Virus record (IMG/VR): IMGVR_UViG_2675903324_000008
Coordinates: 1 to 9,456 of that record
Strand: one strand, 5' to 3'
From: a virus
Taxonomy: Duplodnaviria > Heunggongvirae > Uroviricota > Caudoviricetes
Length of the DNA stretch: 9,456 nucleotides
Position numbers: made by a program. Position 1 is the stretch's first letter, and each line of letters starts with the position of its first letter. This document shows, piece by piece, positions 6,001-9,000 of this stretch.

Positions 6001-9000
6001 GCTACTGGTGCTGTAATTTTTTCTATACTGTACTTACCAAAGAAAGGAACAAGATATTTGTATACTTCATATTCGATATTATACAGCGTAGGTTTCCGCA
6101 ATTCAGATCCCTTTTTAAAAGCGAACCATGCATTAGCAACAGCTTCAAATGTCTGTAGATTTTTTAGTGACATCTCAATTTTACGATTTTTCTTCTCCGT
6201 CACTGGATCAACTCCACGTGCAATCATTCGCCGAAGTTCATCACGTACTTCCCGTGCTTCCGCGAGTGAGAATTCAGGAAAACGTCCTATCGTGTATGTC
6301 TGCCGTTTCTTCGTTATCGGATGGCTATAACGGAAACGCCACACTTTCCCACCGGCTTTACTCACATTCAGCAATAAACCGAACCCATCATAAACGGCAT
6401 AGTCCTTTTCACGTGGTTTCATCCCCTTAACTTCAGTCACGGTTAATGGCTTTACCGACATCTATCGCCCTCATTTTTTAGTCCGTCATGTAGTCCATTC
6501 AAGCCAATAACAAGCGATAAACTAACTCATTATCAAGCAAAGAGAGGAAACTCATAAAATCACAACTCATTGAAAAGACTATGAAACGACACCAGAACAT
6601 ACAAACAGGTAAGAAATGTACCCTACATCCAAAATGACGCAATCCGGGAATTTCGTGGCGTTCCGGTGATACTGCCGTCCGCCGCCGCCCGTTCACCTTC
6701 ACGAAGCCAGATCCCCTGGTTATTCAGTTCACGCTTCTGTTCCGGAGCAATCAGGCCGCGGCAGTGCGGACACATCAGGCGGGCCGCCTGCCCGGCAGCC
6801 ACAAAATCAGGGTTATTCCGGTAACCGGTCATGTTATCCATCACCGGCTGAAAATATTCCCCGCAGTGCGGACACGGCCAGTACCACCGGCGGCGGTCTC
6901 CCCGGTTATACAGTGACAGGATCCCCGTTGTTGGCGGTGCCTCATGTGCGCCGCCACAGCGCCATTTGGTGTCAGTGATATCCCGCCCGGGCGAACTTTC
7001 GACCAGGGTCATCCCCGAGGACATAAAGGTGGTGGTACGCTTTGAGGCCAGGGTGAAGGCATCCCCTTCACCGTCGACGTTCTCAGGAAAACGGTCATAA
7101 TCCGTTAGCGCCACACGACGGTAATCCGAAGAGGAAAATACAGTGATCGACGGCCAGCCAATTTTCAGGAATGAGCCGTCAAGAAACATTTTGTCGTGGA
7201 CGTTGTTGTCATTACGGGAAGGGCTGAGGCGCTTACTGACCTCCGGACTGTGGCGAAACGTCCTGGAAAGACGCGTTCTGGAATGCTCACGCGCCTTTGT
7301 CTCGGTCATCTGCACCACCAGCATATCCGCCGGATCACAGATGATGCCGTACACAATCCAGCCATCAATCAGCCCTTCGGTTTTCCCGGTTCGCGCAGGT
7401 CCCACAAACACCACCGCGTCATATTCACGGGCTGATAATGTATTAATGGGGTCAATCATATAGGGCGTCAGCGATGACTCCCACGGACCGGAAGTATTGG
7501 CTCCCCGTGGAACCCGCATATAACGCCTGATGGCTTCCGCTACTGGTAACCGGCCAGGTGGGCGAAACAGCGAGGCCACTTCGCGCCAGATATCGGATGC
7601 GCGGCTATGGCTCTCGTTCACCTGATTCACATATCGGCCTCATCACAACAGTCAATGACTGCCTTTTCCAGTGTGTCGCGGATCTCATCAACCACAATCT
7701 GTACTTCATTCAGTTGTGATGCGGTCCACCCCCTGTCCCTCTCCAGCCGGTCAGGCCAGGTTTCCAGTACCTGAACTATCGCTTTCACCACGACAGAAAA
7801 GGACCGCCTGACATCACTGACTGGCACAAGCTGAACAGTTTCATGCTGAAATTTAAGACGCTCGCGCTCGGACTGATACCATGCCTTCCGATCATGTGGG
7901 TTCATCTCTTCATCTTCGGAAGCCGGTGGTTTTTCCAGCAACGAAATAATCAAATCCGTCAGGAGATACAGTTTTTTCTTTTCATTACTGCCTGGTGCAA
8001 GAGGAACATCCGCCATTCTGGCGGCAACAGTCTGCCGGTGCAGACCTGAAAGGGCTGCCAGTTGATTAATATTTAACTTCATATTTTTCAGCTCGCCGTC
8101 CATTCACATCCCTCCACATAAACCGCTGAACAAAAGTGGCTCTTTTTTTTGTAAAGAAATGCCGCCATATAAAGATGTCGAACAAAAATCAACCACAACC
8201 ATCATCTTTTTAATGCTAAACACATTAAAAACAACAAGTTACACTAATGATGATGATGACGATAAAATCACAAAAATGCGCCTTTTTCCGCGCCGCCCGC
8301 CCCGTGTTCAGGCCCACCCCACCAGGAGGACCCGCAAGATGATAATGGTTATCATTTGTAATATAGTCCGGTTTCTTCCACCATCGCACCGGACCAGCGA
8401 CCATGAGGGGAGAACGCCGCGCTCCGTTTACGCGGTAAACCCCGGTGTGTATCGTTTTTGATTATCCCCGCACACTCTCGCAGAGGAGTCTCCCTGTCGG
8501 GCTGCGGTCTCTGTTAATGCAGGAATACGGCGACGATACGGCGCATCAGCAAAACTTAGTTCAGGCACTGAGTGCGGATATAGTCCTGTGCCCCTTCCAG
8601 CTGCTTCTGCATTGTCATCAACCGTTCTCTGAGGATGAAATAATCCCGTTCAGCGGTGTCTGCCAGTCGGGGGCCGGTTGCATTATCCACGCCGGAGGTG
8701 CCGGTGGCTTCACGCACGGTACCGGAGCAGGTGGCGTTGATCCGCAGGCGCTTACGACCAGCGGCAACATCAGCACGCAGAGTTTCATTTTCAGCTCTCG
8801 CATCGGCTAATTCCCTCGAGTATCTGGCATCAAGTGCAGCGACATCACGCTGGCGCACCTGCATATCAGTAATGGTTGCGTTTGCCAGCTCCAGCTCTCT
8901 GGCTTTTTTATCGCGCTGCTCTTTGTAGATGATGGCGTGAACACGGTAATGATTCAGCCCCAGACTAAGCGCACCACAGGCCACCAGCAGGACAATGATG

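Follow-up and report, generated by a model that had tools for sequence, protein, structure and literature searches.

A predicted PICI-type satellite in the gpA-type terminase gene of Escherichia coli lambdoid prophages, and the late-gene relatives of its integrase

Satellites residing inside the late genes of their helper prophages were described by Tommasini, Mageeney and Williams (2023), who reported 491 helper-embedded phage-inducible chromosomal islands (HE-PICIs) at 14 sites in nine lambda-cognate late genes (PMC10111431). In the prototype, 11capE of Escherichia coli NRG857c, deep sequencing revealed that the satellite excises precisely once the composite has replicated, and the authors drew an analogy to regulated gene integrity elements (PMC10111431). 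Their survey kept TBLASTN matches of at least 400 bits to the 11capE integrase (Int), and helper-embedded satellites have so far been reported as the product of one integrase clade (PMC10111431). The sites in the terminase large-subunit gene (terL) belong to the Pfam family Terminase_1 (A:Terminase_1:132 and :245), and a doubled motif, tgTGTATTGCantgTGTATTGCa, occurs in both arms of the phage-type attachment site attP, at about -81 and +132 (PMC10111431). Here we analyse a stretch of 9,456 nucleotides, positions 1 to 9,456 of the IMG/VR record IMGVR_UViG_2675903324_000008 (the window in what follows). It probably contains the left junction of a PICI-type satellite of about 10 kb lying in terL of a lambdoid prophage, the excision of which would restore terL and gate packaging.

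The initial annotation had noticed a gpA-type terL frame that stops mid-length at ...SRIASFWM, followed by AT-rich sequence and, about 160 bp away, a P4-type integrase gene, and had proposed that an integrase-bearing island sits inside terL of a lambdoid prophage. These observations held in detail. All relevant genes of the window are on the minus strand according to the list of open reading frames (ORFs) and domain searches, and among them the terL fragment is an ORF of 335 codons in which the Pfam domain GpA_ATPase spans residues 45-308 (E 6e-82); no nuclease domain was detected in these 335 residues by the Pfam scan. The fragment is completely identical to residues 1-335 of the intact WP_001077608.1. 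In an intact homologue of 707 aa, GpA_nuclease starts at residue 330. The fragment therefore represents 47% of terL, with the break between the ATPase and nuclease domains, at codons 335 and 336. After ...SRIASFWM comes a TAG stop codon (6623-6625) contributed by the island, and the int ATG lies 161 nt downstream of this stop, across a spacer (6462-6622) with a G+C content of 36.6% versus 57.3% in the terL fragment. Since the terL-side similarity to the window is lost at position 6621 in 12 deposited Shiga toxin (Stx) phage genomes and in hundreds of E. coli genomes, the break is, on this comparison, something other than a chance end of the frame. The 12 phages include VT1-Sakai and several Stx2a phages, and none of them (0/12) carries the island.

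The window ends within the island, and the far boundary was read from close relatives. The window matches many E. coli genomes, mostly of Shiga toxin-producing E. coli (STEC), and the island measures 10,025 bp in FWSEC0003 O45:H2 (L001), 10,056 bp in 2014C-3097 (L003) and from 9.7 to 10.4 kb across six loci; the junctions of L003 and the window show 100% identity over 501 bp. According to the alignment with L001 and L003, about 3.4 kb of the island lie beyond position 1 and comprise a single-stranded DNA-binding protein (SSB) gene, copies of a cos-like sequence, a ClpP-capsid fusion gene and the far att arm. As expected from the proposed insertion, the far boundary in both genomes adjoins a pseudogene annotated as "terminase gpA endonuclease subunit, missing N-terminus"; portal, prohead protease-capsid and tail genes come next. 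The 3' half of terL is also found at the far end of the island in a third locus, L087. Alignment of attL and attR, the left and right junctions of the integrated island, revealed the short direct repeat that had been suggested as a check, the 7-bp sequence TTGGATG common to both boundaries, which covers the last base of a Phe codon and the Trp-Met codons 334-335 of terL. When the N-terminal half from the window and the C-terminal half from L001 were joined in silico at this repeat, an open frame of 707 codons resulted, and the encoded protein is identical to the intact WP_001077608.1 of strain 2012EL-2448 at 707/707 residues. Thus the ORF is split without replacement sequence and, in silico only, is restorable, as in regulated gene integrity. 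The suggestion that excision would rejoin terL stands in this sense, that the predicted join is exact. Taken together, the alignments support integration of the island inside terL of a lambdoid prophage from a family that includes Stx-converting phages.

Empty and occupied sites were counted in 5,426 complete E. coli genomes, with the reconstituted 500-bp sequence taken as the bacterial-type site attB and a coverage of at least 80%. Empty attB was present in 495 genomes (best identity 99.8%), the occupied left junction in 74 and the occupied right junction in 79. Uninterrupted Rz-cos-terS-terL loci, which the initial annotation had advised to look for in relatives, are therefore common (the 495 genomes with the reconstituted junction). 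In one genome, NZ_CP076237.1 (O157:H7 146N4), terL is occupied in one prophage and a second prophage has an empty site of 99.2% identity (~1.81 Mb and ~4.78 Mb); the second terL could complement the split one. Identity of the island with an element of O157 Sakai (SpLE2 or the Sp prophages) was rejected, as the terminase genes are reported intact there: in the Sakai study this holds for every lambdoid prophage except Sp4, which has an insertion sequence (IS) in nu1.

The island occupies the same codon in divergent terL alleles, including those of L087 (junction 85% identical to the window), L005 and L006. In alleles with the Phe codon TTC in place of TTT, attL and attR both read CTGGATG. The overlap is accordingly the 7-bp sequence YTGGATG, because its first base follows the local terL allele and identity ends right after TGGATG. 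Tryptophan (TGG) and methionine (ATG) are the sole amino acids with one codon each; since TGG-ATG encodes Trp-Met, constraint at the protein level fixes six of the seven core bases. With a control k-mer for the integrase-proximal arm, searched in metagenomes and IMG/VR, 41 further loci were found, 40 of them after ...SRIASFWM in several terL allele families and one off-target. At the evaluable loci int is full length in 37/40, the N-terminal half of terL is open in 37/40 and the C-terminal half in 5/5. On these comparisons the pattern is that of an active site-specific element and not of a deletion scar; the deletion remnant considered as an alternative in the initial annotation describes a few decayed relatives (L005 and L006) and not the typical case. 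The off-target copy (L103 1-1200, IMGVR_UViG_2737471855_000016) is located downstream of a LysR-type regulator gene, where the junction reads CTTTT-TGGATG-TAGGG. Its core is similar to that in terL (CTTTTTGGATG), and the site looks like a secondary attB.

Table 1. Features of the window and sequences of the attachment sites (positions are those of the window).
Feature	Position	Strand	Basis or sequence
Part of the island inside the window, int through replication module	1..6625	-	alignment to L001, L003
RepA-type helicase (AAA_25), island replication protein	536..1945	-	Pfam AAA_25 E 1e-43; RefSeq "helicase RepA family protein" in L001
Bro-N anti-repressor-like protein ("Bro zone" of Gram-negative PICIs)	4368..4946	-	Pfam Bro-N E 5e-20; PHROG 2593 anti-repressor E 1.5e-85
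Strong terminator-like hairpin (9-bp stem, 6 G-C pairs, T run)	4972..4992	-	consensus scan
AlpA-like small helix-turn-helix protein (excisionase/regulator)	5006..5230	-	PHROG 66 "excisionase and transcriptional regulator" E 1.7e-7; weak Pfam HTH_17
P4-type tyrosine integrase, 412 aa, co-oriented with terL	5223..6461	-	Pfam Arm-DNA-bind_3, Phage_int_M, Phage_integrase
Integrase-proximal attachment arm (attL P' arm), AT-rich	6462..6625	-	G+C, consensus scan, alignment
Doubled motif GGACTAcatgacGGACTA, candidate arm-type Int-binding site	6479..6496	-	35 nt upstream of int ATG
TTTATCGCTT, 10-mer repeated in far attP arm (-98 and +111 from core), weak candidate for another protein-binding site	6512..6521	-	repeat scan of reconstructed attP
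5' fragment of helper terL (gpA type), 335 codons, ATPase domain complete	6623..7630	-	ORF list, Pfam, protein comparison
7-bp crossover core, TTGGATG (sense), CATCCAA (+ strand)	6626..6632	-	attL/attR/attB alignment
Helper small terminase subunit, terS (DUF1441 family, Nu1 cognate)	7627..8103	-	Pfam DUF1441 E 8e-49; PHROG 141 terminase small subunit E 8e-65
Helper cos-region segment between Rz and terS, copied in island of related genomes	8145..8337		blastn
Helper Rz spanin gene	8556..9080	-	Pfam Phage_lysis E 3e-49; ORF list
Rz1-type lipoprotein ORF, nested out of frame within Rz	8618-8803	-	ORF list
attL (window), sense			...GCGTCATT-TTGGATG-TAGGGTAC...
attR, sense			...TACTTCTTC-TTGGATG-GAGGGGCC...
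Empty attB, sense			...GCGTCATT-TTGGATG-GAGGGGCC...
Predicted attP junction of excised island			ACTTCTTCYTGGATGTAGGGTACA
Predicted restored terL (attB) junction			TTYTGGATGGARGGGCC

In the sense direction the order is Rz/Rz1, cos spacer, terS, the terL fragment, AT-rich spacer, int, alpA-like gene, hairpin, Bro-N gene, small ORFs and RepA helicase gene (Table 1). Nesting of Rz1 in Rz is the usual layout of the two-component spanin in lambdoid phages; Rz/Rz1 marks the end of the lysis cassette, and therefore the locus lies within the late operon. The alpA-like ORF overlaps the int stop codon by 8 nt, and the hairpin directly past it ends the apparent int-alpA unit. We suggest that the P4-type Int integrates the island at the 7-bp overlap YTGGATG and so divides terL into an ATPase and a nuclease half; with the island's stop codon directly after the core, the integrated state would leave the helper without a functional terminase. 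After induction, late transcription of the helper would pass through terS and the terL fragment into int-alpA, and Int together with the AlpA-like excisionase would, by analogy with 11capE, cut the island out precisely. In this way terL would be restored, exactly so in silico, and the restored terminase would package helper DNA as well as the island, which bears copies of the helper cos. Transcriptional coupling, the timing of excision and packaging we infer. A consensus scan of the sense strand gave neither a sigma-70-like promoter nor an intrinsic terminator, either in the stretch from the terL fragment to int or in the far att arm; as a sign that a defined physiological cue triggers excision, the absence of such sites ahead of int is only suggestive.

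The cos-like copies of the L001 island, both outside the window, are 90% identical over 168 bp and 92% over 90 bp to the spacer between terS and Rz of the helper. They flank the ClpP-capsid fusion gene in L001 (~8990-9079 and ~11450-11617) as well as in L003 (6888-7080 and 9529-9618). The corresponding helper segment of the window matches the L001 island by blastn with 84.5% identity over 194 bp and 80% over 102 bp, and is 86% identical to L001 8884-9076.

The P' arm is nearly identical across all islands of the window type. In the attP reconstructed for such an island, a doublet of GGACTA is located at +133 and +145 from the core centre, and a second, co-oriented doublet is located at -85/-73 in the far arm (L001 8258-8275). 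Across the integrase clade described below, the doublet has the form GGACTA-N6-GRACYA with 12-bp spacing, is placed 35-57 nt ahead of the int ATG, and was found in 11 of the 12 clade loci (the window and 10/11 relatives) versus 1/67 outgroup loci. We read the doublets as candidate arm-type Int-binding sites. The 10-mer TTTATCGCTT was set aside as an arm site: there are two copies only, chance is possible, and the arms hardly vary from island to island. Two further candidates for the junction were rejected, a structured RNA (no Rfam family matched in the window) and an att site at a tRNA or tmRNA gene. The latter had been named as an outcome that would speak against insertion in terL; a scan of the window found no tRNA gene, and only distant relatives of the integrase are located at such genes.

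Graded enterobacterial relatives of the window Int, from 45 to 99% identical, were found in a large protein collection. Such a database was needed to find the clade, because the representatives taken as one genome per species gave no Int above 40% identity. These relatives score 51-91 bits against the 11capE Int. The genomic context was read for 11 of them (45-76% identical), and all 11 lie directly downstream of prophage late genes and are co-oriented with them; an ORF of 65-72 aa follows int in 11/11. Those of Salmonella (P0004, 76%) and Rahnella (P0008, 68%) occupy the same terL codon. Those of Buttiauxella (P0017, 58%) and Klebsiella (P0019, 55%) come after the ATPase domain of a diverged Nu1/gpA-type terL, the fragments ending in ...FHIWSA and ...FHIWSAY..., respectively, and in Raoultella (P0044, 52%) a PF09950 major capsid gene is cut after profile position ~65 of 251. 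For the other six only adjacency was established: after a prohead protease gene in Salmonella (P0009, 63%), after tail genes in E. coli (P0013, 59%), after a DUF2213 head gene (P0042, 51%) and a Terminase_2 terS (P0035, 49%), both in E. coli, after baseplate genes in Enterobacter (P0050, 48.5%) and after a portal gene in Pantoea (P0059, 45%). The clade thus enters gpA-type terL (in Escherichia, Salmonella, Rahnella, Klebsiella and Buttiauxella) and the PF09950 capsid gene, and is found next to prohead protease, portal, tail and baseplate genes.

Relatives of 34-40% identity from other species adjoin tRNA or tmRNA genes in 71/80 loci and terL in none (0/80). In an unbootstrapped neighbour-joining tree the late-gene integrases group together, nested among the tRNA/tmRNA-targeting ones, and the Int of 11capE and that of a chromosomal PICI at cspD/clpS are placed far outside. 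On balance, we slightly favour the view that the window Int defines a second clade habitually entering prophage late genes, with embedding having arisen at least twice and packaging of Stx phages being gated in STEC. A conserved 292-aa ORF with faint similarity to Phage_integrase was observed inside the islands of more distant clade members (L135 9791-10669, L137 10529-11407, L140 7891-8769, L145 7376-8254 and L146 7384-8262).

Several points weigh against excision that restores terL and gates packaging. The far junction of the window itself is unseen. The scan for promoters and terminators was a crude consensus search, and an internal int promoter is possible. A 24-nt pattern of the excised attP junction gave no match in IMG/VR or metagenome contigs, versus 41 integrated copies; this negative is weak, because it is integrated forms that are assembled there. 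Among the relatives there are clearly dead ones (L005 and L006), and int is truncated in 3/40. Finally, infectious particles were not recovered by the authors of the 11capE study, and even the prototype's full life cycle is unproven (PMC10111431).

Among the alternatives the best placed, still an unlikely one, is a classical trans-regulated PICI that uses a prophage gene as its attB, with its own promoter and de-repression by a helper protein as in the EcCICFT073 type, the disruption of terL then being a form of interference and not a timing device, with no role for read-through of helper late transcription. The backbone fits, as its gene set (AlpA, Bro-N, Icd-like, DUF4222, replication and capsid genes) is the one found in chromosomal E. 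coli PICIs. The conserved GGACTA doublet 35 nt upstream of int could be an operator and not an arm site, and the promoter scan is insensitive. Nevertheless, a second doublet is present in the far arm, at positions usual for arm-type sites, the consensus scan gave no sigma-70-like promoter in the two attP arms, and all 12 clade loci examined (12/12) are co-oriented with the late operon.

Rather less probable is that the island, its helper or both are defective, so that the split terL is the permanent pseudogene of an old insertion, perhaps with a deletion, and no switching takes place. The decayed L005, with int cut by IS1, and L006, with the helper lost beyond the island, are examples of such a state, as are the disruptions in 3/40 int genes and in 2/39 on-target N-terminal halves of terL; the absence of the attP junction from the public contigs searched and the unseen far end of the window also accord with it. 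In most copies, however, no decay is visible. The window int is full length, the terL fragment differs from the intact allele at none of its 335 residues, and the junction shows 100% identity to the one in a genome holding both halves. Moreover, occupation of several terL alleles at one codon, together with one off-target copy, points to recent and active site-specific integration.

The decayed copies differ in their lesions. L005 14018-16236 is a decayed Qin-like remnant beside ydfJ, which keeps the N-terminal half of terL. In L006 (4932-5572) a tail-fibre gene comes after the island, which has an additional DUF1441 terS-like gene; the 3' half of terL is missing, and the helper is deleted past the island. 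Among single copies, L117 has one additional T at the junction, L123 a premature stop in the N-terminal half of terL, and L119 and L126 a truncated int.

It is very unlikely that the island is kept for the benefit of the host as a permanent block of virions of Stx-type prophages, with selection on the block and not on its reversibility: the insertion does deprive TerL of its nuclease half, an Stx2a phage is among the helpers and some genomes have a second prophage with an empty site, but both terL halves are intact and in frame, int, alpA and the att cores are conserved, which would be unexpected if restoration were irrelevant, and the retained cos-like sites are of use only if terminase is made.

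The prophage of L003 that bears the island encodes Stx2a, upstream in the same late operon (L003 23804-25044), and the equivalent prophage of L001 is without stx. Within the window, positions 1983-4050 form a variable zone, partly ~80% identical to L001 and L003 and elsewhere unmatched, with small ORFs of no assigned function and a YlcI/YnfO-like ORF on the opposite strand (3379-3690).

A second clade with the same habit and the same int-proximal attP geometry would suggest that embedding in late genes is a recurrent, selectable strategy and not a one-off. Split terL "pseudogenes" beside an integrase gene occur in ~1.4% of complete E. coli genomes and should not automatically be taken for dead prophages; programs that search for satellites or prophages will mis-call such composites. 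With at least one carrier prophage encoding Stx2a (L003), the element is possibly relevant to the production of Stx phages, and excision of the satellite may decide the output of toxin-converting particles. The Trp-Met core, having no synonymous codons, could explain how one integrase follows a coding target across diverged alleles.

It remains to compare the island with the known systems. It resembles skin in sigK of B. subtilis and phi10403S in comK of Listeria, where an ORF is likewise split without replacement and precise excision would restore it. Unlike in these systems, the interrupted gene here is that of the helper phage and not of the host, and the presumed beneficiary is the satellite. 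With the P4-like satellites it shares a P4-family integrase (Arm-DNA-bind_3 plus catalytic domain), an AlpA-like regulator and packaging by the helper cos. In contrast to them, its replication protein is a RepA/AAA_25 helicase, or a PICI-type primase in variants, and the closest integrases that target tRNA/tmRNA genes are only 34-42% identical to the window Int. Assignment to the P4-like satellites was rejected on gene content, the island annotation having none of the capsid-size genes psu, sid and delta and no gene for a P4 alpha primase. The island was also rejected as a capsid-forming PICI (cf-PICI), the complete head module (capsid, protease, portal, head-tail connectors, terS and terL) being missing and only the ClpP-capsid fusion annotated in L001, L003 and L087.

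Gram-negative PICIs of the EcCICFT073 type (Fillol-Salom et al., 2018; PMC6092414) have the same backbone, unidirectional layout, size class and dependence on cos-type packaging. Of the features that define this group, the following were found here too: int, alpA and a replication module within ~10-15 kb lacking tail and lysis genes, and helper cos sequence, present as the two cos-like copies in the L001 island. The difference is that EcCICFT073-type PICIs are integrated at sites in the chromosome and do not disrupt the helper. A stretch of about 120 bp at the right end of the island (L001 8326-8444) recurs in chromosomal PICIs between cspD and clpS (L129 14001-14119), the integrase of which is 23% identical to that of the window. 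Since the right end is shared while the integrases are only 23% identical, the integration module appears, from these alignments, to have been swapped onto a shared PICI backbone.

The likeness to 11capE and other HE-PICIs is the closest. They too have a PICI-type gene order in one direction (int, alpA, Bro zone, replication, late zone), matched by int, the alpA-like gene, Bro-N and the RepA helicase on the minus strand of the window, with SSB and the ClpP-capsid fusion added from the relatives. They lie inside a prophage late gene, co-oriented with it and splitting it without replacement sequence, and they carry a cos-like copy from the helper. As in 11capE, a doubled motif with 12-bp spacing is found in each attP arm, with the int-proximal copy at +133/+145; the TGTATTGC doublets of 11capE are placed at +133.5/+145.5 and -100.5/-88.5, so the far-arm doublet of the window type is ~13-15 bp nearer the core. 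The motif itself is different, GGACTA in the window clade versus TGTATTGC in 11capE, and presence of the published motif in this element was rejected, as it has no match in the window at up to 3 mismatches and is not enriched in L001. The integrases differ as well: the window Int is 25% identical to that of 11capE and scores 86 bits against the 400 bits of the HE-PICI survey. The target, the boundary between GpA_ATPase and GpA_nuclease of gpA-type terL, falls outside the 14 sites of that study, and neither "GpA" nor "ttggatg" occurs in the text of PMC10111431 or its text-form supplements. Our search of the STEC and PICI literature returned only the 2023 HE-PICI paper and papers citing it, none of them on the gpA terL site. 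The phenomenon is therefore already known as the helper-embedded PICI and does not form a new category; set against the literature found, the novel points are the gpA-terL site, the core anchored in Trp-Met codons and the evidence for a second clade of late-gene integrases.

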